A DNA stretch of 64,000 nucleotides from a candidate division FCPU426 bacterium (GCA_963771075.1 CAVYSE010000011.1:128001-192000); one strand, 5' to 3'. Shown: positions 31,858-63,803, numbered from the stretch's first letter. Numbers and translations: made by a program. Notes: a model not told the origin generated them from the sequence alone.

Positions 31858-31899
31858 CTGAGATAAGTCATAGGACGTCTATATCGCTAAAGCTACATT
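31858..31899 (+). promoter_or_regulatory. Crp/Fnr-type box CTGAG-ATAA-GTCAT plus -10 TACATT
   Basis: Box 31858-31871; -10 starts at 31894, 29.5 bp from the box centre. Confidence 0.65.
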
Positions 31900-31935
31900 C
31901 AAAGTCATATAATGAAGGTCGTAAGGAGAGAATCC

Positions 31936-32115
31936 ATGCCAAGGAAAAAAGCCACAGAAGAGACCGTGAAGAAGCCGCGTTCATCCCAAAAGAAGGTGAC
32001 CAAGGAAGAAATTGAAACCTTGGCCTATTATAAGTGGTTGGAAAGGGGATGCCCTCAAGATGATCCGAATATTGATTGGCTCGCCGCAGAAAAAGAATTG
32101 AATTCCAAATCTTGA
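31936..32115 (+). CDS. DUF2934 domain protein
   Basis: IETLAYYKWLERG....DWLAAEKEL; AAGGAG RBS. Confidence 0.85.
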   Translation: MPRKKATEETVKKPRSSQKKVTKEEIETLAYYKWLERGCPQDDPNIDWLAAEKELNSKS

Positions 32116-32194
32116 TGGCAAAAAAGAATTGAGTTTGATTTTCAACGCTTGCGACAAAATCATTGTATGTTTTTAAGGCAATAAATTTTTTTAA

Positions 32195-32236
32195 CTGATT
32201 TAAATCATATTCCGAAGCAACTTAGAGTCGTATATT
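32195..32236 (+). promoter_or_regulatory. Crp/Fnr-type box CTGAT-TTAA-ATCAT plus -10 TATATT
   Basis: Box 32195-32208; -10 at 32231 (29.5 bp). Confidence 0.65.
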
Positions 32237-32242
32237 CACACT

Positions 32243-32357
32243 CGGTAGGTGGTTCTTGAAATGGCACCAATGAGGTGCCAACGGGGTCAAACCCGGCGTG
32301 GTAAGAAAAGAACCTCCTCCAAGACCCTGGGTGGCTCCCCTACCTGGGGTTTTTTAT
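32243..32357 (+). ncRNA. Candidate structured sRNA (three-stem junction plus intrinsic terminator)
   Basis: P1 32244-57/32308-20, P2 32262-68/32274-80, P3 32282-85/32292-95, terminator 32324-50 plus U-run; own promoter upstream. Confidence 0.6.
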
Positions 32358-32402
32358 TTTCCGGGACTTTTTACGTTGGCTAGGTGCGAAATTAAAATGG
32401 AA

Positions 32403-33503
32403 TCAGGCGGGCTGGTAAGCGCAAAAGGGGTCCGCTCCCATGATGTCGCCCGTTAATGCATAGGCTCTTGCTCTCGACCCGCCGCAATGGTACCGGTATT
32501 CACACCGGCCGCATTTCCCTTTCAAAGAATCCGAATCTCTCAAGGTTTTAAACATCTCGTTTTCTTGGTAGATCTTGGAGAGGGGTTCAGTTTTGACGTT
32601 CCCTCCGGGTATCGGAAGAAATCCGCTTGGGCAAATCTCGCCAATATGGGAGATAAACACGAAGCCGCGGCCATCATTTACGCCCAAGGCAGCCCGGATC
32701 AGCCCAGGGCTTGTTCCGGCTTTCATTGCCTTTTCGAGTTCCTCCGGTTTCACCCCGGACCGTTGCAAAATGATGCGGCGGAAATGATGGGCTTCCGTTG
32801 TTTTAATATCAAACCAACCTTCCTTCAAAATGTCATAAAGCTGGTTCAAAACAACCTCGGATTCGCCCGCCGTGAGGGCCTGTTTTTTATCAGCTCGGCC
32901 TGTGGGGACGAGAAAGAAGACGGACCAACGCTCAATGGCATAATCGCGGATGACCTTGGCGATTTCCCAAATCTGGTCCTGATTATGCCGGGAGACGGTG
33001 GTGTTTACCTGAAGCTTGATTCCCAAGTCCTTAAGCCAGCCCATGGTTTCAACGCATCGGGCGAAAGTTCCCGGTATTCCGCGGAAGGTGTCGTGGGTGT
33101 TAGCGTCCGACCCGTCAATTGAGATGGAAACCCGGTTCAGGCCGGCTTTCTGCAACTCTTTCAATTTTTCAAGCGTAAGCAAGGGGGTGACCGAAGGTGC
33201 CAGCGCGAAGGTTAACTCCCGTTTCGAGCATTCCTGTATAAGCAAGGGAAGGTCATCCCTTTTTAGTGGGTCCCCGCCCGTGATCACAAAAAGGGGGATT
33301 TTCCATTCGGCGATTTGTCGGATGAGATCGAGGGCTTGGGGGGTGTCCAATTCCCCGGGGTAGGGTTTGGATTCGGCGCTGGCGCGGCAATGGACGCAGG
33401 CAAGGTCGCAGGCCCGGGTGGCCTCCCAAATGGCGATGAATGGTTTTTCCGAGTAACGATGGTTGGGTTTAGGACTAATGCCAACGTTAGGATGGTTATT
33501 CAT
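32403..33503 (-). CDS. Radical SAM/SPASM protein (NirJ/AhbD-like, TIGR04053-type)
   Basis: WEATRACDLACVHCRA, TGGDPL, FLVPTGR, GKCGRCEYRYHCGGSRARAY...DPFC. Confidence 0.9.
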   Translation of the reverse strand: MNNHPNVGISPKPNHRYSEKPFIAIWEATRACDLACVHCRASAESKPYPGELDTPQALDLIRQIAEWKIPLFVITGGDPLKRDDLPLLIQECSKRELTFALAPSVTPLLTLEKLKELQKAGLNRVSISIDGSDANTHDTFRGIPGTFARCVETMGWLKDLGIKLQVNTTVSRHNQDQIWEIAKVIRDYAIERWSVFFLVPTGRADKKQALTAGESEVVLNQLYDILKEGWFDIKTTEAHHFRRIILQRSGVKPEELEKAMKAGTSPGLIRAALGVNDGRGFVFISHIGEICPSGFLPIPGGNVKTEPLSKIYQENEMFKTLRDSDSLKGKCGRCEYRYHCGGSRARAYALTGDIMGADPFCAYQPA

Positions 33504-33597
33504 TTTCTCCCCTTAAAATTGTTCAAGACCAGTTTGGTTGAATTCATCAGGCGAAAAACAAGGAAGACACCTACCAGAATTACTCGACCTTTACGCT

Positions 33598-33639
33598 ATT
33601 GTATAGCCGTAATTGAATAGGGGTTATGACAAGGGCCAT
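33598..33639 (-). promoter_or_regulatory. Crp/Fnr-type box (ATGAC-AAGG-GCCAT on +) plus -10 TACAAT for the radical SAM gene
   Basis: Box 33626-33639; -10 at 33603-33598 (29.5 bp). Confidence 0.7.
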
Positions 33640-33778
33640 CTTTCCTGGCACCTGCACGATAATTCCGTTTATTTTATAACTTCCACACTGGAACTCAATC
33701 GATGTTTGAGGTTATATCTATTCCTGGGTCTCCTTTACTCAAATGAAGTTGTGTTTCAGGTATTGCCGAAATGCGATT

Positions 33779-33820
33779 ATGACACCTCTCATAACCGGGG
33801 TTTGATTTCTTGAATAATAT
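33779..33820 (+). promoter_or_regulatory. Crp/Fnr-type box ATGAC-ACCT-CTCAT plus -10 TAATAT
   Basis: Box 33779-33792 with TT/AA flanks; -10 at 33815 (29.5 bp). Confidence 0.75.
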
Positions 33821-33877
33821 CAGTCGTGGGCAGGCGGTAGGCCACAAATGGATGGAATTTAAAATCTAAGGGGAAAA

Positions 33878-34288
33878 ATGAGTTTGATCGATTGGAAGGA
33901 CAATTACAGTGTTGAGATCGTTGAAATAGACCATCAACATCAGGGTTTTTTCCGACTGATCAACGGTCTTTATGACGCCCTGATCGAGGAAAAAGAAAAG
34001 GATTCTTTAGGGGCGATCATCCTTGAGTTGGAAGCCTACGCGAAAAATCACTTCAAAACCGAAGAAGACTACTTTATCGAATGGGATTTTCCCGGTGCGG
34101 AAAAACACCGGTTGGAGCATGAGACCTTTACTCGAAACTTGGCCCGGTTTAAAGCCGGGTTCGAGTCGGGTGTCCAAATCGGCATTTCGGTTCAGTTATT
34201 GAGTTTTCTCAGTGCCTGGTTGAAAAACCATATTTTGGTCAGCGACCATCAATACGCCGATTTTATAAAGCAAAAAGCCGTGAAATAA
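33878..34288 (+). CDS. Bacteriohemerythrin
   Basis: W...YSV...IDHQH, HFKTEE, HRLEH, WLKNHILVSD. Confidence 0.95.
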   Translation: MSLIDWKDNYSVEIVEIDHQHQGFFRLINGLYDALIEEKEKDSLGAIILELEAYAKNHFKTEEDYFIEWDFPGAEKHRLEHETFTRNLARFKAGFESGVQIGISVQLLSFLSAWLKNHILVSDHQYADFIKQKAVK

Positions 34289-34361
34289 ACCGGACCATTT
34301 ATTTCACTGAATTTCCATTGATTCCAGCGCGTAAATCCTCGCCATCGGCTTTAATGTTTTT

Positions 34362-35036
34362 ATGAACAGTCCCTCTGAATCACCCCTTTTGAATGTCCTT
34401 TTCGAGAATGAGGATCTCATTGCCGTCGATAAACCCGTCGGGCAAACGGTAATCCCGGCGCGGAATCAAAAGGATATCCTTCCTCCCCTTGTGGAAATGG
34501 TCTCAAAAAAAATAGGAAAAAAAGCCAATGTGGTTCACCGGTTGGACCAAGACACCAGCGGAATCGTGGTATTCGGGAAGAACGCCCAAACCCATCGGGA
34601 ACTCTGCCTTCTCTGGGAAAAAAGAGAAGTCGTTAAGTTATATAAGGCCCTAGTTTGGGGAAAGGTTTCTTCCGGGGAAGGAATAATCGATCATCCTTTG
34701 CGACCTTTTGGTTCGGGCCGTATGGGGGTCGATCCAAACGGAAAGAAAAGTCAAACCCGATATCGGTTACTTCAAAGGGGGACAGGGTCTTCCTTATTGG
34801 AGGTGGAGCCCTGGACCGGGCGACGACATCAAATAAGGGTCCATTTTTATCACTTAGGGTTCCCTGTGATGGGGGATCCGCTTTACGGTCAGGAAAGGCC
34901 GGTGGGAGGTGTGTCCCGGCTTATGCTTCATGCCTATCAGTTGGTCATCCCCCTTCGGGGCCAGACATTGACGATCAATTGCGAGCCAGGAAAAGATTTT
35001 GTCAAAATCTTAAATGAAAACACAGAAATGAAATAA
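34362..35036 (+). CDS. RluA-family pseudouridine synthase
   Basis: VDKPVG, VHRLDQDTSG, TGRRHQIRVH, GDPLYG, LHAY. Confidence 0.93.
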   Translation: MNSPSESPLLNVLFENEDLIAVDKPVGQTVIPARNQKDILPPLVEMVSKKIGKKANVVHRLDQDTSGIVVFGKNAQTHRELCLLWEKREVVKLYKALVWGKVSSGEGIIDHPLRPFGSGRMGVDPNGKKSQTRYRLLQRGTGSSLLEVEPWTGRRHQIRVHFYHLGFPVMGDPLYGQERPVGGVSRLMLHAYQLVIPLRGQTLTINCEPGKDFVKILNENTEMK

Positions 35037-35128
35037 GCCTCCCCTTTTTATAATCAACCCCTTTGTAATCGAAAACCCTTGGTCAAACATACAAGAAGAT
35101 CTGCGGATGAACTATAAAAAGGGCCGTT

Positions 35129-35170
35129 ATGACTTAAGTCATGAATCTTTGTGAGGCGACCCCCTACCCT
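35129..35170 (+). promoter_or_regulatory. Crp/Fnr-type box ATGAC-TTAA-GTCAT plus -10 TACCCT
   Basis: Perfect palindrome 35129-35142; -10-like TAnnnT at 35165 (29.5 bp). Confidence 0.8.
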
Positions 35171-35229
35171 AAAGTGTGTAAGGATCAGAACCGGACGGTT
35201 TGGGAACAGTCCCATCCCTAGGAGAATGA

Positions 35230-35967
35230 ATGAAAATCAGTCCCGATTGGACGGTTCGGGAAGTCGCTTCGCAAATCCAAGCTTCCATTCCGCTTTTTGA
35301 ATCGCTTCATATTGACTATTGTTGCAATGGCCAACAAACATTGAAAGAGGCCTGTGTTACTTTGGAAATCCCCGTGGAAAAAGTCTTGGATTCGCTAGAG
35401 CGCATGGTGAACAAAACCCCCTCCAATCCAGATGCGCCCAACCCATGGGCTAAAAAAAGTATTCCGGAGCTTATTGACCATATCCTGGAAATCCATCACC
35501 CATTCACGCGAGTCCAGCTCAATCGATTGATGAAATTGTCCGAAAAGGTTTCGCGCCTACATGCGGTCCGCCATCCCGAATTGATCCAATTGAACGGTTT
35601 GTTGGTCAAAATGGCCGAGGAGTTGGAAAGCCACATGGTGAAGGAAGAAGAAGTGGTTTTCCCCTGCCTCCGGAAACTTTGGGATTCGAGGCGAAAGAGA
35701 AAAAAATTGGAAAATCCTTTTTTCCAAGGGGGGCAGGAAGATCCGGTCCATGTACTCGTCTGGGAACATGGAATGACAGGGGAGGAATGGCAAGAAATCC
35801 ACCGTTTAACCAAAGATTACACCACGCCCGCGGATGCTTGCGTGTCCTATCGGTCCCTGTACCAGGGGTTGAAAGAGCTGGAGGATGATTTGCACCGGCA
35901 CATTCACCTGGAAAATAACATCCTATTTTACCGTCTCCAGCAATTGGGACTTTTGGGCTCCCTTTGA
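35230..35967 (+). CDS. ric: Iron-sulfur cluster repair di-iron protein (Ric/YtfE/ScdA)
   Basis: IDYCCNG, HILEIHH, HMVKEE..FP, EH, TPADAC, HIHLENNILF. Confidence 0.93.
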   Translation: MKISPDWTVREVASQIQASIPLFESLHIDYCCNGQQTLKEACVTLEIPVEKVLDSLERMVNKTPSNPDAPNPWAKKSIPELIDHILEIHHPFTRVQLNRLMKLSEKVSRLHAVRHPELIQLNGLLVKMAEELESHMVKEEEVVFPCLRKLWDSRRKRKKLENPFFQGGQEDPVHVLVWEHGMTGEEWQEIHRLTKDYTTPADACVSYRSLYQGLKELEDDLHRHIHLENNILFYRLQQLGLLGSL

Positions 35968-36007
35968 TTCATCCGAAGCGACAACTCAAGAAAGGCTGCT
36001 TTTTCAA

Positions 36008-36787
36008 ATGATGACCATGAATCAAATGGACCTAAGGGGGATTGCCCACGGCTGGGAGCAAAAAATCCTTTCCGCTTTTGATGGTTTGAACGAGGGACAA
36101 GCGTTGGAAATCCTCGTGGATTGGGACCCAACCCCACTACATTTCCTGTTATTGAAGGAAAGAACCAGGCTTTTCCGATGGGAAAACCGGGAAAAAAAAC
36201 CGGATCATTGGAAGATCCGCCTCCTGCGAGTGGCGCATGGATTGGGGGAAGCCCCGGCCTCGGAACCGCCGGTTTTGACTCCCCGGCCTAACATCAGCCC
36301 GCGACCCGCCTGGATTGACGATTTGAACCCTTCCTGTGGACTTTTTTTGGACATTCGACCCCTTACTGAGAAAGGGCTGGACCCCTTTCAAATGATTGTC
36401 CAATCGGCGAAAGAGTTAAAACCCGGCCAACACCTGCACTTGGTCCAAAATGAGCAGCCGGAGTCTTTTATTTGTGCCCTGGGTCGGTTAGGGTATGAGG
36501 GGTTTGCCGAAATGAAAGGCGGGGTTTGGAACGCCTATTTCCGAAAGGGTAAGATTCCGCCCACCGGCCAACCGGTAATGGAACTGGATGTGAGACGGTT
36601 GACGCCGCCCCTTCCACTATTGAAGGTGCTGGAATCCCTTCCCTTGATCTCATCGGAAGGCGTTTTGAAGGTATTCTTCCCAAATCGCCCGGATAGTTTG
36701 ATCGAGAAACTCCAGGCGCATGGTTTTGAGGTGAAGTGGGAAGCTTCCGAGGGTGGGGCGTTTGTACTTTGGATATGGAAAAAATAA
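36008..36787 (+). CDS. DUF2249/TusA-like repeat protein
   Basis: Three modules starting MDLRG, LDIRP and LDVRRL..P.P. Confidence 0.75.
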   Translation: MMTMNQMDLRGIAHGWEQKILSAFDGLNEGQALEILVDWDPTPLHFLLLKERTRLFRWENREKKPDHWKIRLLRVAHGLGEAPASEPPVLTPRPNISPRPAWIDDLNPSCGLFLDIRPLTEKGLDPFQMIVQSAKELKPGQHLHLVQNEQPESFICALGRLGYEGFAEMKGGVWNAYFRKGKIPPTGQPVMELDVRRLTPPLPLLKVLESLPLISSEGVLKVFFPNRPDSLIEKLQAHGFEVKWEASEGGAFVLWIWKK

Positions 36788-36886
36788 TCCAAAACCAGCG
36801 AAAGCTGAGTACCGATGTATGCCGGCGTGAATCGACGGGCCATGAACGGTCCTTGGATTCATGAACAATGTTGATTGGGAGCGACG

Positions 36887-38326
36887 ATGACAGAACCGAT
36901 GATTATTCAGGGAGGAATGGGCGCCGGGGTTTCCAATTGGGTCTTGGCCCGCGCGGTTTCCCAGACAGGCCAGATGGGGGTGGTTTCCGGAACCGCTTTG
37001 GATTCGATTATGGTCCGCCGGTTGCAAACCGGCGATATGGATGGAGCCATGCGACGGGCCCTGGTCGCCTTTCCCGACCCTGCCGTGGCCAAGCGCATTT
37101 TGGACCGTTATTTCATTCCCGGCGGCAAAAAAGATCATGAGCCTTTTCGATTGATCCCCATGTTCACCCTTACTCCGCCGAAAGAACTGGTGGAACTCAA
37201 TGTGGCCGCCAATTTCGCGGAAGTTTGGCTCGCGAAGGAAGGGCACTCGGGCAAGGTCGGCATCAATTTCCTTGAAAAGATTCAAATGCCCCTCCTTTCC
37301 TGCATCTATGGGGCCCTGTTGGCGAACGTGGATTATGTCCTCGTGGGCGCGGGCATTCCCCGGGCCATTCCGGCGATCCTCGATAAGTTGTCCCAGCATG
37401 AGGATGCCTCCATGAAGATCTATGTCCAGGGTGCCTCCGCTGAGGAGGAAAGCATCATGACCTTTCGCCCCCGGGATATCCTGTCGGAGATAGGCGAGGC
37501 GCTCAAGCGGCCCCGGTTTCTGGCCATCATCGCCTCGGAGGTCTTGGCCCTAACGCTTGCCAAGAAGTCCACGGGCAAGGTGGACGGCTTCGTAGTGGAA
37601 GGCCCCACGGCCGGGGGGCATAACGCCCCGCCTCGCGGGCCCCTCCAGCTCAATGACAGGGGAGAACCGCTTTATGGGGTCAAGGATGAGGTGGACCTGC
37701 AGAAGATCAAGGCCATCGGCCTTCCCTTTTGGGTGGCGGGTTCCATGGCCGACCCGGCTAAGCTCAACGCGGCTTTGGAAGCCGGTGCGGCGGGCCTGCA
37801 GGTGGGGTCCGTGTTCGCTTATTGCGAGGAATCAGGCCTCGCCGACTGGATCAAAAAAAAGGTGATCGAGGGTTTGCGGGCGGGATGGGTGCATGTTTTT
37901 ACCGACCCCAAGGCCTCCCCAACGGGTTTTCCCTTCAAGGTGGTGAATGTCCCTGGGACCAATTCCGAATTAGGGGATTATCAAAAGCGAAAACGTATCT
38001 GCGACCTGGGATACTTGCGGAGCCTTTATAAGCGGAAAGACGGAACTCCGGGTTACCGTTGCGCCAGCGAACCCCACGAAGCCTATCTGCAAAAGCAGGG
38101 TGAAATGGCCAACACGGAGGGTCGCAAATGCCTTTGCAACGGTTTAATGTCCAATATCGACTTGTCCCAATCCCAGAAGGATGGGAGCGTAGAACGGGCG
38201 CTCGTTACTTCCGGTGACGATGTGGGCAGGATCCTGAATTTCCTCAAGGGCGGCAAGGAATCCTATTCGGCCATCGAGGTGGTCGAGTATCTCCTGGGTT
38301 CCCGGATTCCCGCGGCGGCGGTTTAA
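36887..38326 (+). CDS. Nitronate monooxygenase-family flavoprotein
   Basis: IIQGGMGAGVS, EGPTAGGHN, QVGS, ASPTGFPFK, KCLCNGL. Confidence 0.88.
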   Translation: MTEPMIIQGGMGAGVSNWVLARAVSQTGQMGVVSGTALDSIMVRRLQTGDMDGAMRRALVAFPDPAVAKRILDRYFIPGGKKDHEPFRLIPMFTLTPPKELVELNVAANFAEVWLAKEGHSGKVGINFLEKIQMPLLSCIYGALLANVDYVLVGAGIPRAIPAILDKLSQHEDASMKIYVQGASAEEESIMTFRPRDILSEIGEALKRPRFLAIIASEVLALTLAKKSTGKVDGFVVEGPTAGGHNAPPRGPLQLNDRGEPLYGVKDEVDLQKIKAIGLPFWVAGSMADPAKLNAALEAGAAGLQVGSVFAYCEESGLADWIKKKVIEGLRAGWVHVFTDPKASPTGFPFKVVNVPGTNSELGDYQKRKRICDLGYLRSLYKRKDGTPGYRCASEPHEAYLQKQGEMANTEGRKCLCNGLMSNIDLSQSQKDGSVERALVTSGDDVGRILNFLKGGKESYSAIEVVEYLLGSRIPAAAV

Positions 38327-38364
38327 TCGGCCTTCTCCATGAGGGACTCAAAAGTGACTTAATT

Positions 38365-38406
38365 ATGACAGGGGTCATGTGGCGCCCCGGTACCGGGGAC
38401 CATAAT
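38365..38406 (+). promoter_or_regulatory. Crp/Fnr-type box ATGAC-AGGG-GTCAT plus -10 CATAAT
   Basis: Box 38365-38378; -10 at 38401 (29.5 bp). Confidence 0.8.
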
Positions 38407-38509
38407 CAAATCCAACTTCGCCGATTGGTTTTTGTAAGTTGAAGTTTTGCCCCGCGTCGAAACAATTTGGGGGGAACCTTTTAAGTCGCGTGTTGGGGAT
38501 CAAACGAAC

Positions 38510-39211
38510 ATGAAACTCAAATTAAAATCCAAGTTTCCCTTTCGGGACCGAGACCAAGCCGCCCGGATGCTTTGCGAGAAACTTTTCCATTATCGAGGGC
38601 TGAACCCGCTGGTCCTCGGCCTTTCTCCCGCGTCCGTGCCCATGGCCTGTCTCTTGGCCCGTTACCTGAAGGGTGAGGCGGATATTTTATTGGTCGAGAA
38701 GATTTATTCTCCCGAAAACCCCCATTTGGCGTTGGGAGTACTGGCGGAAGGCGGCGCTTTTACGCTCGCGCCCGGGGGAGGCCAAATGTGGGTTCCGCCC
38801 CATTTTCTGGAAGAAGAAATGCGCAAACTGTCCCACGGCCTTCAGGAACGCCGGAAATTATATACCCCCCAAAGGGCGCTCCTCTCCTGCGCGAACCGCG
38901 TCGTGATCCTGATCGACGATCTCGCCAAAACGGGGGTAAGCCTTTGGGCCGCCTATCGGGAGGTGGATGGCCGGCATCCCGCCCAGGTGGTGGTAACGGT
39001 CCCGGTGGCGACTCCCGCGGCCTTGGAACTGTTGCGACGGGAAACGGAAGAAGCCTTTGCCCTCTGGTCCGGCGATCAATGGTCTACCCCGTCGGAGATT
39101 TACGAAATCAACGTGAAGATCAGCGAAGAGGATGCCGCGGAATTCCTGCATCCCGTCGATCCGGACCTGTTGGTTTCCCGTGGACGAGCCCACTCGATTC
39201 CCGCCAACTAA
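38510..39211 (+). CDS. Phosphoribosyltransferase-like protein with divergent motifs
   Basis: FRDRDQAA, P.NP.LALG, VILIDDLAKTG, VVTVPVA. Confidence 0.8.
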   Translation: MKLKLKSKFPFRDRDQAARMLCEKLFHYRGLNPLVLGLSPASVPMACLLARYLKGEADILLVEKIYSPENPHLALGVLAEGGAFTLAPGGGQMWVPPHFLEEEMRKLSHGLQERRKLYTPQRALLSCANRVVILIDDLAKTGVSLWAAYREVDGRHPAQVVVTVPVATPAALELLRRETEEAFALWSGDQWSTPSEIYEINVKISEEDAAEFLHPVDPDLLVSRGRAHSIPAN

Positions 39212-39261
39212 ACTCCTTGTGCCTATTTGGAAGCGCGCCCCTATAATGAGCCTTTCTTAAA

Positions 39262-40026
39262 TTGATAGGAGTGGTATCCCTTTTGTCCCCCTTCGTTTGG
39301 ATGCTCCTGAGCGTGATCGTGGTAAGCCTCCTATCCCTGATCGGGATATCCCTTTTCGCGCTCAGCCATAAAACTTTCCATGCCCTTGTCTTCGTCCTGG
39401 TGGCCTTGGCCGTGGGGGCCCTCTTTGGGGACGCCTTTATCCATCTTTTGCCCGAGGCCATGAGGGAATCCTCCCAAGCCCTGGACGCCTCCCTGACGGT
39501 CATCGGCGGCATCCTCCTCTTTTTCATTCTCGAGAATTTCCTCCACTGGCGCCATCAGCACTCGGACGAGCATGAGGAAATCCAACCTTACGGTTATTTA
39601 AACCTGACGGCGGACATGGCCCACAATTTTATCGATGGCCTCTTGATCGGGGGTTCCTACTTGGCGGGCATGAAGCTGGGAATGGCCTCAGCCCTGGCGG
39701 TGCTATTGCACGAGCTACCACACGAATTCAGCAATTTCGGAATCCTGGTGAAATCGGGGTTCTCCAAACAAAAGGCGATCTTTTTGAATTTCCTCACCGC
39801 CCTTACGGCCATCCTGGGCGGGCTGGCGGCCTGGTGGCTTGGGGGATCGGTGGCGGGATTTCTACGGGTCCTTTTGCCCCTGACCGCGGGGAGTTTTATC
39901 TATATCGCAGGAAGTGACCTGGTGCCCCAACTCCACAAGGACGTTAAAAGCGCCCGGGCCCTGGTCCAGTTCGTCGCCATCCTGACGGGCGTGGGGCTGA
40001 TGCTCCTTATCAAGTTGTTGGAATAA
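39262..40026 (+). CDS. ZIP-family metal transporter
   Basis: HLLPEA, His-rich loop, HNFIDG, HELPHE, FIYIAGSDLVP. Confidence 0.93.
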   Translation: MIGVVSLLSPFVWMLLSVIVVSLLSLIGISLFALSHKTFHALVFVLVALAVGALFGDAFIHLLPEAMRESSQALDASLTVIGGILLFFILENFLHWRHQHSDEHEEIQPYGYLNLTADMAHNFIDGLLIGGSYLAGMKLGMASALAVLLHELPHEFSNFGILVKSGFSKQKAIFLNFLTALTAILGGLAAWWLGGSVAGFLRVLLPLTAGSFIYIAGSDLVPQLHKDVKSARALVQFVAILTGVGLMLLIKLLE

Positions 40027-48634: not shown

Positions 48635-48638
48635 GTAT

Positions 48639-49679: not shown

Positions 49680-49796
49680 ATGGTTTATTTCGCTGGGTGG
49701 GAGTCTAATGGGTCGTGCAAAGAGGAGCAAGTCAGGGGATTATTTTTTAGGCTTTTTCCGCCCTTGGCGCTAAACTTTCATGGAAATAGGCGTAAA

Positions 49797-49830
49797 TTAT
49801 GACAAGTGTCATAACGCGAGAATTGTCATA
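49797..49830. promoter_or_regulatory. Perfect box TTATGAC-AAGT-GTCATAA plus adjacent half-site
   Basis: 7-bp arms at 49797-49814; second GTCATA at 49825-49830; lies between divergent VIT1 and kinase genes. Confidence 0.8.
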
Positions 49831-49900
49831 AGCGTTATACAACTTCAAAGCATTCGACAGATATTAAAACACAATCTAAAAACGGGGAGAACGATTCTTA

Positions 49901-51813: not shown

Positions 51814-51829
51814 TATGACCCTTGTCATA
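51814..51829. promoter_or_regulatory. Box TATGAC-CCTT-GTCATA between the divergent hypothetical gene and acs
   Basis: Perfect 6-bp arms; TATATG/TATGAT lies about 30-32 bp away on the - strand. Confidence 0.78.
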
Positions 51830-52152
51830 ACCACTCAAGGGATCTTCTCCACCCCCGAGTGGAGGGTTTCCTGGTAATTTTTTATCTTGCTATTTAAAGG
51901 AGAAATACCTTTTCCACTGGTTTTGTTGAAAAAGCGTTATTCGAAAATTTGAAGAGAATTGATCCGGAATAGAACCGTTGAACAATGAGGGGTTTAAAAG
52001 AGTCGATAAGGTTGCAGGCCATTTGTCGTGGCAATCATTTTCCTTTGGCGCATCGTTTGTCGAAGAAAATTTGGATGACCAACGTCATAGACAAAGGATT
52101 GGGTAGGCGACAAACTACCACGAATTTATTTTTTTATTTCCAGGGAGGAAAT

Positions 52153-55246: not shown

Positions 55247-57372
55247 TTCTTTTGGGCCCTTTCCGAGAGCAAAACTCTCACATCCAAAGCTTTAACACCT
55301 TTTCCCTGTTCGTAAACAACCAGGGGATTGATCTCAATGTCGGAAATTTTCTCGCATTTCCGAACCAACGAACCGAGTTTGATGATGGCGTCCACGACGC
55401 CATCCATGTCTTTTTTGTCCTCTCCCCGAACCCCAAGGAGCAGGGGATAGATCTTGGTTTCTTTGATCATGGCCAGGACATCCGATTTGGAGAAGGGAAC
55501 GGACCGGAAGGAAACGTCTTTCATTACCTCGACGTAAACCCCGCCCATGCCGCACATCACGATGGGGCCGAAAGAACGGTCCCGCCGGGCACCCACGATG
55601 GTTTCCGTACCTTTTTTCACCATCTCGTTGACTTCAACGCCTTCGATCACCGCGTTGGGATTGTGTTTTCGGCAGTTAAAGAGGATGGCTTCGTAGGCAT
55701 CCATCACCTCTTGCTGGTTTTCCAGGTCCAAGGCGACGCCGCCGACGTCGCTTTTATGAAGGATATCCCGGGAAACCACCTTCATGACCACCGGGTATCC
55801 GATTTTTTCAGCCGATTTAACCGCTTCTTCCAGGGTGCGGGCAATCGAGTTTTTGGGCATGGGAACCCCGCAAAGTTCCATGATCTTCTGTCCCTCGTGG
55901 GCCAATAAAAAAGACCGGCCGTCCGCGGCCGCCTTGTCCAATACGGCATTGACCGCGTCCACCGGGATGTCGTGCTCCACGGGAAAGCCAGGGGGAGACA
56001 GGTTATGCCGGTACTGGGTCATTAAGGCCCCCAAGCAGGAAACGGCCGAATAGGTATCCTCAAAAACGGGCGCATTATCCTGCCGCAGTGAGAGAATGGC
56101 CCGCTCGGTGGGTTCGCCCCCGAAAAGAGAGAACACGATCGGCTTCCCGCCATCGCGGTAACGGACCGTATTCTCGCGGATCATGGTGGCCAGGTTGTCC
56201 ACGTCAAAAACCGCCGTCTCACAATAGAGGGCAATGACAGCGTGGATGTTTTCCAGCCTCAAGGCCGCGGCCAAGGCGCCGTCGTAGTCGGAGGACCGGG
56301 CCTGACCCGTCAGGTCGATGGGATTCTTGATGGACCCAAATTCCGGAACTTCCTTGGCGAAGGCTTTTTTCATCAGTTCCACGTCGTCGTAAAGCGGGAC
56401 CTGGTATTTTTCGCAGGCGTCGGTGGCCATGACCCCGATACCGCCTCCGTTTGTGATGATGACCGTATTCTCGCCCCGGGGCGCGGAACTGGACGTGAAA
56501 CTTTTGCACCAGTTAAAGGCATCCTGGAAATTCTCAGCCCTCAAGACCCCGCATTGCTTGACAATGTTATCGAGGATCTCGTCCGAACCGGCCAGGGCGC
56601 CGGTGTGCGAGGCGGCCGCCATGGCGCCCCTTTTGGAACGTCCGGATTTGATCATGATGACGGGCTTCTTCCGGGTCACCCGGTTAATGGTGGAGATCAT
56701 CCGCTCCCCGTCCTTGATGCCCTCGGTATAAAGCATGATGACCTTGGTCTGGGGATCGTCCACCAAATATTCCAAAAGATCGGCCTCGGTGATATCCGCC
56801 TTGTTGCCCACGGAAGACATGGTAGAAAGCCCGATGTGGGCCACCGCCGTCTTGCCGATCATGCCGATACCCAGCGCGCCGCTCTGGGTGATGATGGCCA
56901 CGTGGCCTTTCTGGATCTGGGGTCCAAAGGTGGCGTTCAGGTCGGCGTTGGCCGAGTAGATACCGAAGATGTTGGGCCCCATGACCCGCATGCCATGATC
57001 CAGGGCGAAGGACACCAGGGCTTTTTCTTCGGCCACGTTGCCCGTCTCGGAAAAACCGGAGGTGATGACGGGCAGGAACTTGACGCCGTTGGCCGCGCAT
57101 TCCTTGACCGAATCCATGACGAACTTGGCCGGGACCGAGATGCAGGCCAGTCGATGGGCTCCTCTATCTCCGCGAAGGCTTTTCGCCATGGTCAGTCCCA
57201 AGCACCTCCCCGCCCTTGGGGTTGATGGGATACACCTTGCCCTTGATAGCCGCCGGAAAAATATTCTCCACGATCTTGTAACCCACCTTGTCGGGGCTGG
57301 CGGAAGCGCCCACCACGGCCACCGAGCGGGGCTCGAATAGGTATTTGATGTCAGGTCGATTAGGTTGTTCAA
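55243..57372 (-). CDS. ADP-forming acetate-CoA ligase (alpha-beta fusion); several indels in the first ~250 bp
   Basis: LFEPRSVAVVGAS (alternate frame), GPNIFG, TQSGA, GNKAD, ASHTGALAG, NPIDL, GYPVVMK, HKSDVGGV, EINPL; GGAGG before TTG 57372. Confidence 0.9.
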   Translation of the reverse strand: MNNLIDLTSNTYSSPARWPWWALPPAPTRWVTRSWRIFFRRLSRARCIPSTPRAGRCLGLTMAKSLRGDRGAHRLACISVPAKFVMDSVKECAANGVKFLPVITSGFSETGNVAEEKALVSFALDHGMRVMGPNIFGIYSANADLNATFGPQIQKGHVAIITQSGALGIGMIGKTAVAHIGLSTMSSVGNKADITEADLLEYLVDDPQTKVIMLYTEGIKDGERMISTINRVTRKKPVIMIKSGRSKRGAMAAASHTGALAGSDEILDNIVKQCGVLRAENFQDAFNWCKSFTSSSAPRGENTVIITNGGGIGVMATDACEKYQVPLYDDVELMKKAFAKEVPEFGSIKNPIDLTGQARSSDYDGALAAALRLENIHAVIALYCETAVFDVDNLATMIRENTVRYRDGGKPIVFSLFGGEPTERAILSLRQDNAPVFEDTYSAVSCLGALMTQYRHNLSPPGFPVEHDIPVDAVNAVLDKAAADGRSFLLAHEGQKIMELCGVPMPKNSIARTLEEAVKSAEKIGYPVVMKVVSRDILHKSDVGGVALDLENQQEVMDAYEAILFNCRKHNPNAVIEGVEVNEMVKKGTETIVGARRDRSFGPIVMCGMGGVYVEVMKDVSFRSVPFSKSDVLAMIKETKIYPLLLGVRGEDKKDMDGVVDAIIKLGSLVRKCEKISDIEINPLVVYEQGKGVKALDVRVLLSERAQKK

Positions 57373-59246
57373 CGGTTCCTCCGCGGAAGGTCATTTTCAG
57401 CTCAACCACATTCGTGTTCGTGCGCTTCTGCAAGTCAAATCCTTGATTCTCGAAAAGATGCAGCATGGCGGTGTTTTCCTGAAGGACCTCGGCGGTGAAC
57501 CCGAAGAGCCCCTGCTTCTTCGCCAACATGGTCAGGTAGGAAAGAAGCTCCGTTCCGACCCCCTTGTTATGATAATCGTCCTTCACGACGAAGGCGACTT
57601 CGGCGGAATGCTGGTTTTCCTGGATGCCGTATTGCCCCACCCCGATGATCTCCTCCCGCCCCTGGTCCTCCGCGAAAGCCAGGATGACCATTTCCTTGCT
57701 ATAGTCGATCACGACGAATTCCTGAAGCCTTTCGTGGGGCATGTCCTTACGCACCGACATGAATCGTCGGGACATGCTCTGGTCGGACAGGGAATAGAAA
57801 AAATCCTTAAGGCCGGGTTCGTCATTGATCTTGACGGGGCGCATCAAAAGCCGCAGGCCGGATTCGGTCGTCCGGCGGGTCTCCAGGGACTCCGGGTACT
57901 CTCCGCGTTTTCCAGGGAATAAAGGCCTGGTCCTTGTAAATCAAATGGTTCTTCTTCGCTTCCTCCAGCAACCAGGGCCGGAACTTTGGGTGGGCGATAG
58001 AAATGATGTCCATTGCCCTTTCTCGCAGGTTCTTTCCGTGAAGATAGGCGATCCCATATTCGGTCACCAGGTAATGAATGTCGCCTCGGGTAAGGGAAAT
58101 ACCGGCCCCTTCATGGAGGAAAGGCACAATCCTGGAAACCTGTTCGTTATCCGCAGTGGATTGCAGGGTCAGGATGGTTTTCCCTCCTGGCGCGAGCACG
58201 GCGCCCCGCATGAAATCCGCCTGGCCCCCGATTCCACTGAAAAACAAGTGGTCCAGGGATTCGGCGGTAGATTGGCCGGTCAAATCGACCGACAGGGCGC
58301 TGTTAATGGCGGTCATATTGTGATTGCTCGCGATGATCAGTGGATTGTTGGTGTAATCAATGGGCCGGAATTCGACGGAAGGATTGTCATGGATGAATTC
58401 GTAGGTTTCCTGGGTTCCCATGCAAAAGCTGGCGATGGTCTTGCCGGGGTTAAGGTTTTTCCTGGAGTTGTCGATCACGCCTTCCTTCATCAGTGCCACG
58501 ATTCCGTCCGAGAGCAGCTCGGTATGCACTCCCAAGTGCTTTTTATGCCTTAAATTAGCCAAGATGGCGTTGGGGATACTGCCGTAACCCACCTGCAGGG
58601 TATCTCCGTCCTGAACGAAACGGGCGATATATTTCCCGATACGGTTGGCGATCTCGTCGGAAACTTTCGGTTCGTACTCCAGCAGCGGCTCGTCGTGGTG
58701 GACAATGAAATCCACGTCATCGGCGTGAAGGAAGGTGTCGCCATGCACACGAGGCATATGGCTGTTCGCCTGGGCGATCACGATACGGGCGTTGGCTACC
58801 GCCGCCTTAGTGATATCGACGCTGACCCCCAGGCTCATGTAGCCATGCTGGTCCGGCATGCTGGTTTGGATCAGAGCCACATCCACTGGTACCAACTTCC
58901 GGTTGAATAGATCGGGCACTTGGGAAAGAAACAGGGGCGAATAGTCGGCCAGACCCTGGTTGACCGCCTCCCGGGTGTTATCGCCTATGAAAAAAGAATT
59001 GTGGCGGAAGTTTTGCTTGAATTTCTTGTCGGTGTAGGGTGCGAGGCCTAAGGTCCAGACGTGGATGACTTCGGTGTCAAAAAAGGCCTTGGGATGGTCT
59101 TCGATATATTTGATCAGGGCCCCGACCAGGTACTGGGGTTCGCCACAGCCGGTGCCGATATAGATCCGGTCGCCGGGATGGATATGACTGAAAACCTCGT
59201 ATTCAGTGGCAAATTTGGAAGGATAATTTTTTCTTAACGATTCCAT
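57351..59246 (-). CDS. Acetyl-CoA hydrolase/transferase fused to a C-terminal GNAT domain; frameshift near 57916
   Basis: GEPQYL, LGVSVD, LQVGYG, HTELLSDG, GIGGQADF, VTEYG, IAHPKFR; then SRRF, AEVAFVVKDDYHNKGVGTELL, ENTAML. Confidence 0.88.
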
Positions 59247-59368
59247 TTGGTTTTCATTCCATTCGCAAAACCGGGCGCTTACCGGGCTTTGGAGAACCAT
59301 CCGCCGGCCAAGAATCACCGAAGAGAAAGTAGGGCCGGAGACCGCTTAACCCTTTCAAGGACGCGTTG

Positions 59369-59410
59369 ATTATAAGTTAATGACCCTTTCATGCTATGAC
59401 TCAAGTCATA
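59369..59410 (-). promoter_or_regulatory. Box TATGAC-TCAA-GTCATA plus -10 TATAAT for the CoA-transferase-GNAT operon
   Basis: Box 59396-59409; -10 at 59374-59369 (28.5 bp). Confidence 0.8.
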
Positions 59411-60695: not shown

Positions 60696-60737
60696 ATGAC
60701 AACTGTCATAATAACTTCACCCCGCTGGTCCTAAAAT
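60696..60737 (+). promoter_or_regulatory. Box ATGAC-AACT-GTCAT plus -10 TAAAAT for the porin gene
   Basis: Box 60696-60709; -10 at 60732 (29.5 bp). Confidence 0.8.
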
Positions 60738-60832
60738 CGCTTCTCGTTGATTCTTTTCCCACGACAATCAATTGACCTCCCGGATTTTGTCGGTTCGCGA
60801 GAGCGAAAAAAACTTTCAAGGAGAAAGAAAAT

Positions 60833-62065
60833 ATGAAAAGGTTTTTGTTTTTTTCGATTTTGACTTCCCTGTTTCTGGCGGGATGGGGTACTAAGGTTTT
60901 CGCCCAAGCTACCGAAGTTAAGAATCAGGGAACCCCGGCGGTGACTCCTGAGGCGACGATGGCCGTACCCGCCTCTCCGGTTATAACGGTGGGTGGCTTG
61001 GTGGATGCGTACTATACCTACAACTTCACCAACTCCAGCAAAAACATGAACGGCCACGGAAACGTTGGATACAGCTATGACAACCTTAACGCCGTAGGTT
61101 TGAACAACGTCGACGATGTTTTCTCCCTGGGCGTGGCGGAATTGATCGTGAAGATGAAGCAGGGCGACGTCAGCGGGATCGTGGCGATATGGACACAGAT
61201 GGAAGCGGGCAACTCCGTTATGAACATCTTGGTGGCCAACGCGACCTACTCCCCCGGGCAATTCGCCTTCATGGCCGGCCGTTTCGGTGATTTTATGGGG
61301 AACGAGGCGTTCGATACCAACATGAACTGGAACTACAGCCATTCGCTCATGTACAACGATACCCTGCCCTTGTGGCTTCAGGGTGTTAGCGCCGCCTATA
61401 TGCCTTCCGATTCCTTCAAGGTCACGGCTTACGCGACGGAAGGATGGATCAACGACCCGGGTAATATGAACGATTATGGGAAAACCTACGGGTTGGCGAT
61501 TAACATCAAACCCGATGAGGTTTGGGGCGTGAAGTTGAACGGAATTGCCGGGCCGAACGAAGGGTATTACTCGAGCGTCACGAATCCGGGGGACTCCCTT
61601 TACGTGGGCGAACTCATCCTCAAGTGCACGGCGACCCAAGACTTTTCATGGGCCCTGGATGCCGAGTATGGCGGGTTGGACCCTGTGGCCGAGGATCATT
61701 TGGCCAGCTTGAGCAGTGAGACCTTCTGGGGCGCGGCCCTTTACGGCAGATACAACATCGCGGCGGACTGGAACATTGGACTTCGTCTGGAAGAATTGGA
61801 ATCGAGCAATAGCTGGCTTTATAACGGCATGATTCCTTCGGTCACACCTTATGTGGAAACCCGAGAAGCCACTTTGACGCTATCCAACCAAGTCACGAAA
61901 AACCTGTTGCTCCGCCTGGAAGGCCGTTACGACATGGCCTTGACCGGCGGAACGATGGATGCGGCCGAGACCACCTCTCCCACGGGCGGGGTTTACGTTG
62001 GGCCTTACGCGGGCGGGTCCGGCGATCAATTGACGACCACCGCCAGCGCGGTGTTGAGCTTCTAA
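60833..62065 (+). CDS. Outer-membrane beta-barrel porin (DUF1597/BBP2-like)
   Basis: Signal peptide; GLVDAYYTYN, AGRF..FMGNE, NWNYSHS, LRLEGRYD; C-terminal Phe. Confidence 0.8.
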   Translation: MKRFLFFSILTSLFLAGWGTKVFAQATEVKNQGTPAVTPEATMAVPASPVITVGGLVDAYYTYNFTNSSKNMNGHGNVGYSYDNLNAVGLNNVDDVFSLGVAELIVKMKQGDVSGIVAIWTQMEAGNSVMNILVANATYSPGQFAFMAGRFGDFMGNEAFDTNMNWNYSHSLMYNDTLPLWLQGVSAAYMPSDSFKVTAYATEGWINDPGNMNDYGKTYGLAINIKPDEVWGVKLNGIAGPNEGYYSSVTNPGDSLYVGELILKCTATQDFSWALDAEYGGLDPVAEDHLASLSSETFWGAALYGRYNIAADWNIGLRLEELESSNSWLYNGMIPSVTPYVETREATLTLSNQVTKNLLLRLEGRYDMALTGGTMDAAETTSPTGGVYVGPYAGGSGDQLTTTASAVLSF

Positions 62066-62090
62066 TCGAGCCTTAAGGGAACATTTTTCC

Positions 62091-62148
62091 AAAGGCTGAA
62101 ACCTCTATTTGACGCCGTGTTTTAATTTCTCTGAGGTTTCAGCCTTTT
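62091..62148 (+). terminator. Long hairpin with U-tail between the porin gene and satP
   Basis: AAAGGCTGAAACCTC/GAGGTTTCAGCCTTT 15-bp stem followed by T-runs. Confidence 0.7.
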
Positions 62149-62209
62149 ATTTTTTGACGGTTGATCGGATGGGCTTGTGCGTATTCATCTAATAAAGGAG
62201 GCAGGAACA

Positions 62210-62809
62210 ATGACGACTCAAAGTGAACCCATGAAGCTTGCGGACACTACTGCTAATCCGGCACCCTTGGGCTTGTTGGGCTTCGGGATGACGACCGTGT
62301 TGTTAAACTTCCACAACGCGGGGTTTTATGCTCTGGATTCGATGGTCTTGGCTATGGGCATTTTTTACGGCGGCTTAGCCCAGGTGATCGCAGGGGTCCA
62401 AGAATGGAAAAAGAACAACACCTTCGGCGCCACGGCCTTTACTTCCTACGGGATGTTCTGGCTGACCTTGGTGGCTCTGCTGACCCTGCCCAAGCTGACG
62501 TTCCTGGGTTGGGCTGGCCCGGATGCCAACTCCTTCTCGGTTTACCTGGCTCTCTGGGGTATCTTTACATTGGTTATGTTCGTGGGAACTTTAAAACTCA
62601 ACCGCGCTCTACAGGTTGTTTTCGGATCGCTCGTTATTCTTTTCTTCATGCTTTCCGCCGGCAAGGCAATGGGAAGCGAGGATATCATCCACATCGCCGG
62701 GTATGAGGGTATATTCTGCGGGGCATCGGCGATCTATACCGGGCTGGCCCAGGTCCTCAACGAGGTTTACGGAAAAGTGGTTTGGCCGCTGGGACCCGTG
62801 AAGAAATAG
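62210..62809 (+). CDS. satP: Acetate uptake transporter (SatP/YaaH, GPR1/FUN34 family)
   Basis: ANPAPLGLLGFGMTT, FYGGLAQ, NTFGATAFTSYG; AAGGAGG RBS. Confidence 0.95.
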   Translation: MTTQSEPMKLADTTANPAPLGLLGFGMTTVLLNFHNAGFYALDSMVLAMGIFYGGLAQVIAGVQEWKKNNTFGATAFTSYGMFWLTLVALLTLPKLTFLGWAGPDANSFSVYLALWGIFTLVMFVGTLKLNRALQVVFGSLVILFFMLSAGKAMGSEDIIHIAGYEGIFCGASAIYTGLAQVLNEVYGKVVWPLGPVKK

Positions 62810-62869
62810 TCGGACAAAGTTAAACGGCTATTAGGACTCATTTTAAATTATTTTAGTTTTATGTTTATG

Positions 62870-62897
62870 AAACCCGCCCCAATGGGCGGGTTTTTTG
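62870..62897 (+). terminator. Intrinsic terminator after satP
   Basis: AAACCCGCCC/GGGCGGGTTT plus T-run. Confidence 0.85.
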
Positions 62898-62971
62898 TTA
62901 ATTACCATGAAAAGATTATAGAAATAAGCCAAATTTCTTCTTTTTACTCTTTGGAAATCCTCTTTATTTTC

Positions 62972-62985
62972 ATGACTGAAATCAT
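62972..62985. promoter_or_regulatory. Box ATGAC-TGAA-ATCAT upstream of the Crp/Fnr gene (possible autoregulation)
   Basis: One mismatch to consensus; about 120 bp before the ATG; no -10 at the usual spacing. Confidence 0.6.
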
Positions 62986-63104
62986 AGAAATAACGGGCTC
63001 GATTTTTGTCGTAATCCATTATGTTTCTTCGGCCCTATACCTTGCCCTTTAGTTGGCATGTCGTTACAATTTATAAAAGGAGTTGAAAAGGGGAGGAATG
63101 CGCA

Positions 63105-63803
63105 ATGCTTCATTCACAAACATCGCCCGGCAAACAACCTAACATGGTTGGCCGCTCCTTTATTTCCTCCCTGGAAGTTTTCAAAAAGATCCCATCTTCC
63201 CACCTGCTTGAACTCGAAAAGAAAATGGTTGAGCGCAAGTATGCCAAGGGTGAATCCCTTTTCCTCGAAGGCGACCCGGCAGAATACGTCTGGTTTGTCA
63301 AGGAAGGCCATGTCAAGGCCGTTATCCATACCGCCAATGGGCGGGATTTGACCCTCTGTATGGTGGGGGCGAATAGTCTTTTCGGGACCTGCTGCTGTTT
63401 CGGAGGGGGAGAATATCCCTGTCACAGCGTGGCGGAAACTGAAACCACAGTCGTGGCCCTTCCCATGCAGGAGTTCATCAATCTTTTGGATAAATACCCG
63501 GAAGTTGGTAAGTCCATCGTTTTCCACCTTTCCAAACGCTTACGCCAGGCCAAAGATATGCAGACCTTTGACCAGGAAAGCGTGGAAAAACGGATTCTTC
63601 ACCTTCTCGTGAACCTTGTGGCTGAATTCGGCAACACCATCCCCTTGACCCGGCGTGAGATCGCGGAAATGACTGGAACAACGGTGGAAACTTGTATCCG
63701 AACCTTTTCCAATCTTGAAAAGGAAGGGTTGGTTTCCAGCGCTAGGGGAAAGATTACAGTAAAAAGCGTACAAGATTTGATCGATCGGCAGGAGGAACTT
63801 TAA
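63105..63803 (+). CDS. Crp/Fnr-family transcriptional regulator
   Basis: KGESLFLEGD, FG, VEKRI..LL, LTRREIAEMTGTTVETCIRTFS; GGAGG RBS. Confidence 0.95.
   Translation: MLHSQTSPGKQPNMVGRSFISSLEVFKKIPSSHLLELEKKMVERKYAKGESLFLEGDPAEYVWFVKEGHVKAVIHTANGRDLTLCMVGANSLFGTCCCFGGGEYPCHSVAETETTVVALPMQEFINLLDKYPEVGKSIVFHLSKRLRQAKDMQTFDQESVEKRILHLLVNLVAEFGNTIPLTRREIAEMTGTTVETCIRTFSNLEKEGLVSSARGKITVKSVQDLIDRQEEL

Follow-up and report, generated by a model that had tools for sequence, protein, structure and literature searches.

The question raised by this locus is whether a palindrome that recurs before the genes of one stretch of bacterial DNA is a promoter element and, if so, which protein reads it and in answer to which signal. 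The stretch analysed, hereafter the window, comprises 64,000 nucleotides of a candidate division FCPU426 bacterium and corresponds to positions 128001-192000 of contig 11 of a 4.39 Mb genome (28 contigs, 96.7% complete). A sequence-only reading of the window had listed 12 copies of the palindrome (T)ATGAC-N4-GTCAT(A), here called the box, upstream of genes in its second half, and had attributed them to the Crp/Fnr-family protein encoded at 63105-63803. Our comparisons of sequences indicate that the boxes are real promoter elements, conserved and accompanied by a -10 hexamer that starts 29.5 bp from the box centre. A dimer of the 63105-63803 protein is likely to bind them; it would activate transcription from the class II (-41.5) position and would sense its signal through four cysteines. 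We give this reading a probability of about 0.7. It is supported because the boxes are enriched, stand before genes, keep a fixed spacing to the -10 hexamer, occur at the same places in other genera, track the helix G-T-T-V-E-T-(C/S)-I-R and precede the regulator's own gene.

Distribution and promoter context of the box

Seven perfect copies of ATGAC-N4-GTCAT are present in the window versus 0.05 expected, a number reached in none of 100 shuffles, and all seven fall within 35-61 kb. Six of them are among the 12 listed sites (35129, 38365, 49799, 51815, 59396 and 60696) and bear out the earlier count of six copies with perfect arms; the remaining listed sites have one mismatch (33626, 33779 and 62972), two (31858) or three (32195 and 48959). 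A weight matrix trained on the ten intergenic perfect sites of the genome gave just 12 matches scoring at least 5 in the 64 kb, all of them at 31858-62972 and none in the first 31 kb, in agreement with the earlier remark that no intergenic copy is found there. A perfect copy at 52075, inside the longest open reading frame (ORF) of acs, had been missed. We count it as a 13th promoter site because it is located upstream of the likely true acs start, ATG 52154; this ATG is preceded by the ribosome site GGGAGG, and the longest frame begins 169 bases too early (51985-52153).

Genes of the whole genome were called with a crude gene caller of our own (3449 genes, 81.6% coding). Perfect copies number 26, of which 10 are intergenic, with 18% of the genome called intergenic, and 16 coding; the intergenic share rises to 11 of 26 once the acs start is re-set. 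Half of the coding copies (8 of 16) sit in identical copies of one insertion-sequence-like ORF, about 340 aa at full length, on contigs 3, 11, 18, 19, 21, 26 and 28 (e.g. C3:100817 and C11:540367). As each of these eight ORFs holds the perfect palindrome within its coding sequence, they inflate the genome-wide counts and are not promoter boxes. One-mismatch copies were mildly enriched between genes (36 in 0.81 Mb versus 103 in 3.58 Mb of coding DNA), whereas two-mismatch copies were no denser there (255 versus 1476, same regions). The expectation that true boxes be commoner upstream of genes than in shuffled or coding DNA was thus borne out by the perfect copies and mildly by those with one mismatch, but not by those with two, and therefore sites 31858, 32195 and 48959 cannot stand on their sequence alone. 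Intergenic matches scoring at least 12.5 number 21 in the genome, nine of them in the 31-kb stretch of the window. Other palindromes were not enriched between the genes of this genome, where the FNR type (TTGAT-N4-ATCAA) has three intergenic copies and the FixK/HcpR1 type (TTGAC-N4-GTCAA) and the CRP type have one each.

Evidence for the three degenerate sites comes from conservation. Region 31700-32420 was aligned with its counterparts in five relatives, which belong to three genera. Four of them retain box 31858 as CTGAG-N4-GTCATA, with TA(C/T/A)ATT at +29.5 and ahead of a conserved DUF2934 ORF. Box 32195 is kept in all five, with the core TGATTTA..TCAT and TATATT at +29.5; in relative G011 the matching place reads CTGACTTCCGTCATA. 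At the place of 48959, three species of one genus (G001, G002 and G003) hold TATGAG-N4-GTCATA, which argues that 48959 is a decayed copy of a real site; it still has TACAAT at the right distance. The base rate of the genome (82 matches scoring at least 10 in 4.39 Mb, about 1% per 500 bp) was used as reference, because the fatty-acid desaturase gene, with a box in 6 of 19 homologues of relatives, is a variable regulon member and unfit as a negative control. Judged by these comparisons, all 12 listed copies are real, nine on sequence grounds and the three degenerate ones because relatives retain a box at the matching position, and the claim that 12 copies lie upstream of genes holds.

The distance between box and -10 hexamer provides the second line of evidence. 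Of 33 oriented site-sides in the window's genome, 8 have a TAnnnT that starts at exactly +29.5 from the box centre, and no other offset has more than two. Box sites of relatives were collected from 20 loci of 16 relatives, picked for holding boxes or regulator genes, and 61 of these sites score at least 15. Among them TAnnnT is found at +29.5 in 37 strand-instances versus at most six at any other offset; it falls exactly there on one or both sides of 31 of the 61 sites, and no more than one base away in 39. Boxes of Nitrospirota-type loci all have a -10 hexamer at this position (9 of 9; TATACT or TAAAGT, on one side). The nine -10 positions named in the sequence-only reading, eight at 29.5 and one at 28.5, were all correct, and the scan of genome and relatives that it had proposed gave enriched perfect copies and a spacing fixed at 29.5 bp.

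Because the -10 hexamer starts at +29.5, the box centre would lie at -41.5 if the hexamer spans -12 to -7. In class II Crp/Fnr-dependent promoters the box is centred at about -41.5 and overlaps the -35 region, and the spacing found here would fit the same layout, with the box apparently replacing the -35 element. A consensus promoter scan of 31700-38500 returned four full -35/-10 matches, none of which coincided with a box promoter. Since no box promoter is called as a full sigma-70 promoter, the box would stand in for the -35 element, and RNA polymerase would then need the bound regulator. A protein covering the -35 region could also hinder RNA polymerase, and the boxes might accordingly be operators of a promoter-blocking repressor. 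The box promoters have no recognisable -35 element, and their strict 29.5-bp phasing to the -10 hexamer is a hallmark of class II activation by CRP and FNR, so that repression appears very unlikely. The sites and genes concerned are, in order along the window:

31858-31871: box CTGAGATAAGTCAT, two mismatches; -10 TACATT at 31894-31899 (+)
31936-32115 (+): small ORF of 59 aa, DUF2934 (Pfam PF11154, E 1.1e-10); coding sequence conserved in four relatives
32195-32208: box CTGATTTAAATCAT, TGAT/ATCA variant, three mismatches; -10 TATATT at 32231-32236 (+)
32243-32356 (+): predicted small RNA (sRNA) of about 115 nt, its ends approximate and deduced; intrinsic terminator at 32321-32353
32403-33503 (-): radical SAM/SPASM enzyme (TIGR04053, AhbD-like)
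33626-33639: box ATGACAAGGGCCAT, one mismatch; -10 TACAAT at 33598-33603 (-), facing the radical SAM gene
33779-33792: box ATGACACCTCTCAT, one mismatch; -10 TAATAT at 33815-33820 (+)
33878-34288 (+): hemerythrin (Pfam PF01814)
35129-35142: perfect box; -10 TACCCT at 35165-35170 (+)
35230-38326 (+): RIC/YtfE di-iron repair protein, DUF2249/TusA protein and NMO-like oxidoreductase, likely one operon
38365-38378: perfect box; -10 CATAAT at 38401-38406 (+)
38447-40026 (+): phosphoribosyltransferase-domain protein and ZIP metal transporter
48107-48902 (-): Cys-rich small ORF (48639-48902) overlapping a hemerythrin-like gene (48107-48724)
48959-48972: degenerate box ATGAGCCAGCTCAA, three mismatches; -10 TACAAT at 48931-48936 (-)
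49799-49812: perfect box between VIT1 (48969-49730, -) and the histidine kinase gene; TATACA at +30.5 on the + side
49901-51247 (+): sensor histidine kinase
51815-51828: perfect box for a 160-aa gene of no known function (51269-51751, -); TTATAT at +29.5, TATGAT at +32.5
52075-52088: perfect box missed earlier; -10 CAAACT at 52111-52116 (+), at +29.5
52154-54135 (+): AMP-forming acetyl-CoA synthetase (acs), start re-set to ATG 52154
55243-59318 (-): acetyl-CoA hydrolase/transferase (57822-59318) and GNAT/ADP-forming-ACS-like protein acetyltransferase (55243-57847, two overlapping frames)
59396-59409: perfect box; -10 TATAAT at 59369-59374 (-), offset 28.5
60696-60709: perfect box; -10 TAAAAT at 60732-60737 (+)
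60833-62809 (+): BBP2 porin and SatP/YaaH-type acetate channel
62972-62985: box ATGACTGAAATCAT, one mismatch, ahead of the regulator gene; CGTAAT at +31.5
63105-63803 (+): Crp/Fnr-family regulator with helix G-T-T-V-E-T-C-I-R and Cys85, Cys96, Cys97 and Cys106

Some of these features call for a comment. A further half-site, TGTCATA, is located 17 bp past perfect box 49799 (49816-49837), ahead of the histidine kinase gene. The Cys-rich ORF at 48639-48902 (-) encodes 87 aa from ATG 48902, downstream of the 48959 promoter, and matched no family; it shares 86 bases with the beginning of the hemerythrin-like gene, and the two may be a single gene with a frame error or a coupled pair. The Pat-like acetyltransferase gene (55243-57847, -; GNAT, CoA-binding, Succ_CoA_lig and ATP-grasp) consists of two ORFs overlapping by 209 bases, with CoA_binding_2 cut at the junction; this split is a frameshift or an assembly error. 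Its GNAT domain is N-terminal in the window and C-terminal in the G005 homologue (L114:8056-10827).

The probable reader of the box

The genome contains four Crp-type genes above threshold. Two of the encoded proteins, the 63105 protein and a paralogue on contig 21 (58668-59369), are 62% identical and have the helix G-T-T-V-E-T-(C/S)-I-R in common. For comparison of regulators, 80 loci (791 kb) were taken from public genome records; together they hold 26 perfect boxes versus one copy of the control. At the loci of orthologues with at least 71% identity, a box stands directly upstream of the regulator gene in 8 of 8 cases, seven of them with TAnnnT at +29.5. At three loci of relatives (L005, L006 and L007) some 41.5 bp separate the box centre from a downstream Met, the one corresponding to residue 14 of the window's protein, so that the regulator mRNA there would be leaderless.

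In a phylum-wide comparison, 98 other genomes were searched for the helix by a degenerate DNA pattern and for the box as the 16-mer TATGAC-N4-GTCATA. The helix pattern was found in 28 genomes, namely 26 of the 30 in the family, the single one of family f2 and one of the two of f14, and its control pattern in none. Of the 28, 25 carry the 16-mer (106 copies, mean 3.8), versus 11 of the 70 genomes without the helix (12 copies, mean 0.17; reversed control pattern, 7 copies); these genomes are related by descent, and for this reason no formal test is attached to the co-occurrence. Distant homologues from Nitrospirota-labelled records (32-33% identity, picked by the helix peptide) share the helix, and at six such loci nine perfect boxes lie just past the regulator gene. 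Helix and box reach, in other words, beyond the window's lineage. The proposal of a Crp/Fnr regulon with a box at the regulator's own gene is well served by this comparative evidence, namely the spacing, the co-occurrence of helix and box, the eight orthologue loci and the conservation of the regulon described below.

The contig 21 paralogue might nevertheless be the main reader of the boxes, or both proteins might share them. Its helix departs from that of the 63105 protein only by Ser in place of Cys, and all four cysteines are present, which tells against an exclusive role of the 63105 protein, and many relatives carry at least two such regulator genes. However, a box adjoins the gene in only 2 of 16 paralogue-type loci (46-67% identity) versus all eight of the 63105 type, and no box scoring at least 10 is present within 10 kb of the contig 21 gene. 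We consider a leading or shared part for the paralogue improbable.

A response regulator of the NarL type had been named as the alternative. DosR, the NarL-type response regulator of the mycobacterial dormancy regulon, has a palindromic box with a GAC-N4-GTC core, and the island resembles the DosR regulon in joining a hypoxia-type gene set under one palindromic box with this core; in addition, it contains an orphan histidine kinase. GerE-domain genes, though, number only two in the genome, C17:67221 and C3:372248, both off the window's contig and neither beside a box scoring at least 10. Unlike DosR boxes, those described here track a Crp-type helix across the 98 genomes and precede the Crp gene itself. 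A NarL/DosR-type reader is for these reasons hardly credible, and we retain the 63105 protein as the likely reader.

Class of the regulator and its probable signal

The 63105 protein belongs to the Crp/Fnr superfamily by its domains (PF00027, E 1.1e-19; PF13545, E 1.7e-14; and PF00325). Its predicted structure is Crp-like, with a beta-roll, a long helix at 132-157 and a helix-turn-helix at 183-206 (mean pLDDT 77.8), and its best solved relatives are Thermus Crp and NtcA (E 1e-19 to 1e-14). Curated subfamily models fell far short of their cut-offs: NtcA 64 bits against 245, CRP (NF008732) 61 against 266 and FNR (NF008365) 44.6 against 228. The ESM Atlas returned generic Crp/Fnr clusters only. 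The protein is a member of neither FNR, CRP nor HcpR.

E. coli FNR binds TTGAT-N4-ATCAA at -41.5 and holds a [4Fe-4S] cluster by N-terminal Cys20, 23 and 29 together with Cys122. The 63105 protein shares with it the Crp/Fnr fold, the Val, Glu and Arg of the helix (V-E-T-x-x-R), the TGA-N6-TCA palindrome and the predicted -41.5 geometry, as well as a broad metabolic candidate regulon and a box at the regulator's own gene. It differs from FNR in that the helix has C/S-I where FNR has I-S, and the box has A instead of T as outer base and C as inner base; the box is, as had been claimed, distinct from those of both CRP (TGTGA) and FNR, with the TGA-N6-TCA core in common. Furthermore, there is no N-terminal Cys-x2-Cys-x5-Cys: residues 1-84 contain no cysteine, and the cysteines are at positions 85, 96, 97, 98 and 106, in the beta-roll pocket in the case of the four conserved ones.

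All 27 family members in our alignment have these four residues, C85, C96, C97 and C106, without exception. Of 18 loci whose homologues are 56-89% identical, 17 have the full set; in the 55 distant homologues examined the cysteines are lacking throughout. The clade is small, with 29 of 1.84 billion cluster representatives at E 1e-30 or better, and 5 of 31 aligned sequences have all four cysteines. In CRP, cAMP is contacted by Glu72, Arg82 and Ser83. Alignment to Thermus Crp (4ev0) places T95, Y104 and P105 opposite Glu, Arg and Ser; in CRP numbering we take T95 to correspond to Glu72, Y104-P105 to Arg82-Ser83, C106 to the next residue and C85 to Ser62. On the basis of this alignment and numbering the four cysteines would line the former nucleotide pocket, and the signal would be sensed at the places of the cAMP-contacting residues of CRP. 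The cofactor would most likely be an iron-sulphur (Fe-S) or metal centre labile to O2 or nitric oxide (NO), the protein being active when oxygen is scarce. The signal is thus probably O2 or NO, perceived via a metal or Fe-S centre in the four-cysteine pocket.

Re-use of the beta-roll effector pocket for a non-nucleotide cofactor, as proposed here, has a parallel in CooA, the haem-based CO sensor of the superfamily; an adjacent Cys-His pair (C106-H107) is located in the same part of the fold. Unlike in CooA, there is no sign of haem, H107 is not conserved, and box and targets differ. Other members of the superfamily sense through an N-terminal cluster (FNR) or a C-terminal cluster (Bacillus Fnr). 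It is possible, and we put it forward tentatively, that this clade reworked the cAMP pocket into a four-cysteine Fe-S or metal site and so represents a third independent mode of O2/NO sensing in the superfamily. It would then run the hypoxia programme of a phylum without canonical FNR via the private box TATGAC-N4-GTCATA, including acetylation control of acetyl-CoA synthetase and a new sRNA with CCUCC. In the literature, no publication on a four-cysteine pattern in Crp/Fnr proteins was found among the matches listed. RedB (PMC9603854) was rejected as a match, as the text of that paper does not contain the word cysteine and gives a motif that is not palindromic.

The closest published box is that of HcpR1. 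Rodionov et al. (2005, PMC1274295) predict the box wyTTGACnnnnGTCAArw for HcpR1 of delta-proteobacteria and cyanobacteria, give GTAAC-N4-GTTAC for HcpR2, and state that HcpR, DNR and NnrR have no cysteine motif. Compared with this description, the system of the window is similar in its TGAC-N4-GTCA core, in a Crp/Fnr regulator that often stands beside its targets and in hemerythrin-like and redox targets, but it differs in the outer base, A instead of T, and in the four invariant cysteines of the clade. A search of the literature by box spelling matched only TGACNNNNGTCA (Rodionov 2005, with TTGAC) and an unrelated Pseudomonas katA paper, and no publication combining ATGAC, GTCAT and Fnr was found. 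The claim of a new box holds against the publications found and has to be weakened in another respect: the box is a variant of the known TTGAC-N4-GTCAA type (PMC1274295), from which it departs by a single base in each half-site.

This proximity bears on the nature of the signal, which could be NO or nitrosative stress instead of oxygen, the regulator resembling HcpR, DNR or NssR and driving NO defence. RIC/YtfE, hemerythrins and DUF2249 are typical NO-stress genes, a weak box stands ahead of a quinol NO reductase gene on contig 1, and at the Nitrospirota-type loci boxes precede a DUF1858 gene. Against this, hcp, the core target of HcpR and as a rule a neighbour of its gene, was sought as a Prismane (PF03063) match and not found in the 96.7% complete genome, and most targets belong to general energy and carbon metabolism (acs, hydrogenase, alcohol dehydrogenases, cytochrome bd, enolase and acyl-CoA dehydrogenase). 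The second RIC gene, moreover, adjoins a different Crp paralogue, on contig 26. A purely nitrosative signal appears to us unlikely, although the two readings overlap since an Fe-S centre could answer to both gases. Judged by its genes, the programme suggests oxygen limitation rather more than NO alone, and both gases are possible signals. The paralogue on contig 26 (G000:C26:49816-51320, L094), with helix S-V-R-E-V-V-S-R, is divergent from the second RIC gene and lies beside a rubrerythrin-like gene; together with this RIC it may form a separate NO- or oxidative-stress circuit.

Several observations weigh against a cysteine-sensing 63105 protein that activates from the boxes. The Cys loop, 96-102, is modelled at pLDDT below 50, and because the cysteines are missing from distant homologues that share helix and box, the box tells nothing about the signal. 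The helix-encoding family genomes G010 and G013, and also G025, have no perfect 16-mer, and genomes of family f3, in which the helix pattern is missing, hold one or two boxes. Genera differ in which genes belong to the regulon, the fatty-acid desaturase mentioned above having no box here, and boxes are lacking upstream of the cytochrome bd gene of the window's genome and at the aa3 oxidase operon within the window.

The candidate regulon

Boxes in the window precede genes for the DUF2934 protein, the sRNA, the AhbD-like radical SAM enzyme, two hemerythrin-type genes, RIC/YtfE with DUF2249 and the NMO-like enzyme, the phosphoribosyltransferase with ZIP, VIT1, the histidine kinase, the 160-aa protein, acs, the acetyl-CoA hydrolase/transferase with the Pat-like acetyltransferase, the porin with SatP, and the regulator itself. 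The programme switched on by the active regulator would accordingly comprise di-iron proteins (hemerythrins and RIC), an oxygen-independent radical SAM enzyme, the sRNA, DUF2934, metal transporters and the histidine kinase, together with an acetate part made up of genes for uptake, activation and control by acetylation.

Elsewhere in the genome, boxes are found ahead of an acyl-CoA dehydrogenase gene with an ETF-QO-like gene, the divergent diaphorase and [NiFe]-hydrogenase genes, nikR-nicO, a thioredoxin-like gene and an enolase gene, in addition to the weaker box at the NO reductase gene. In relatives they precede genes for Zn-alcohol dehydrogenases, short-chain dehydrogenases, c-type cytochromes, cytochrome bd subunit I, thioredoxin and YceI. 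Hydrogenase, diaphorase, nickel uptake, acyl-CoA dehydrogenase and enolase, and in relatives alcohol dehydrogenases, cytochrome bd and c-type cytochromes, are therefore candidate targets. Genes of the island are boxed in relatives as well: a box is located within 400 bp upstream of the radical SAM gene in 12 of 20 homologues and upstream of RIC in 7 of the 17 best homologues, and boxes also precede the genes for the phosphoribosyltransferase (G007 and G015), hemerythrin (G024 and G003), the kinase (G001-G003), the Pat-like protein (G005) and the regulator.

One perfect box, G000:C11:214183 (L083:4184), is located 39.5 bp ahead of nikR, which is followed by nicO and a TonB receptor gene. GTATGA also resembles the half-site of the NikR operator, so that either NikR or the Crp/Fnr regulator, or both, may use this copy. 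A role in supplying nickel would be in keeping with the hydrogenase targets.

What emerges is a testable regulatory map for an uncultured lineage: a single box and a single regulator family, with about 13 promoters in a 31-kb island and further targets outside it. Proteins of oxygen or redox stress are linked by this map to oxygen-independent cofactor chemistry, to hydrogenase and nickel supply, to the use of acetate with reversible acetylation, and to a new sRNA. Of greater interest is the regulator: its four-cysteine pocket is a candidate new type of sensor, and as helix and box are common to Nitrospirota-labelled homologues without the cysteines, the same DNA module has been joined to different sensors.

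The sRNA predicted at 32243-32356 exceeds the neighbouring gene in conservation, with 83-92% identity over four full-length matches and 88% with G014, versus 69-77% for that gene. By BLAST it is present in 8 of 24 other genomes of the family, in five genera. In Rfam nothing reached the gathering score in the window, and the sRNA stretch gave chance-level matches only, with no family. In an alignment of nine sequences, compensatory changes were found in 6 of 30 predicted pairs. The 3' side of the closing stem contains CCUCC, which could pair with ribosome-binding sites.

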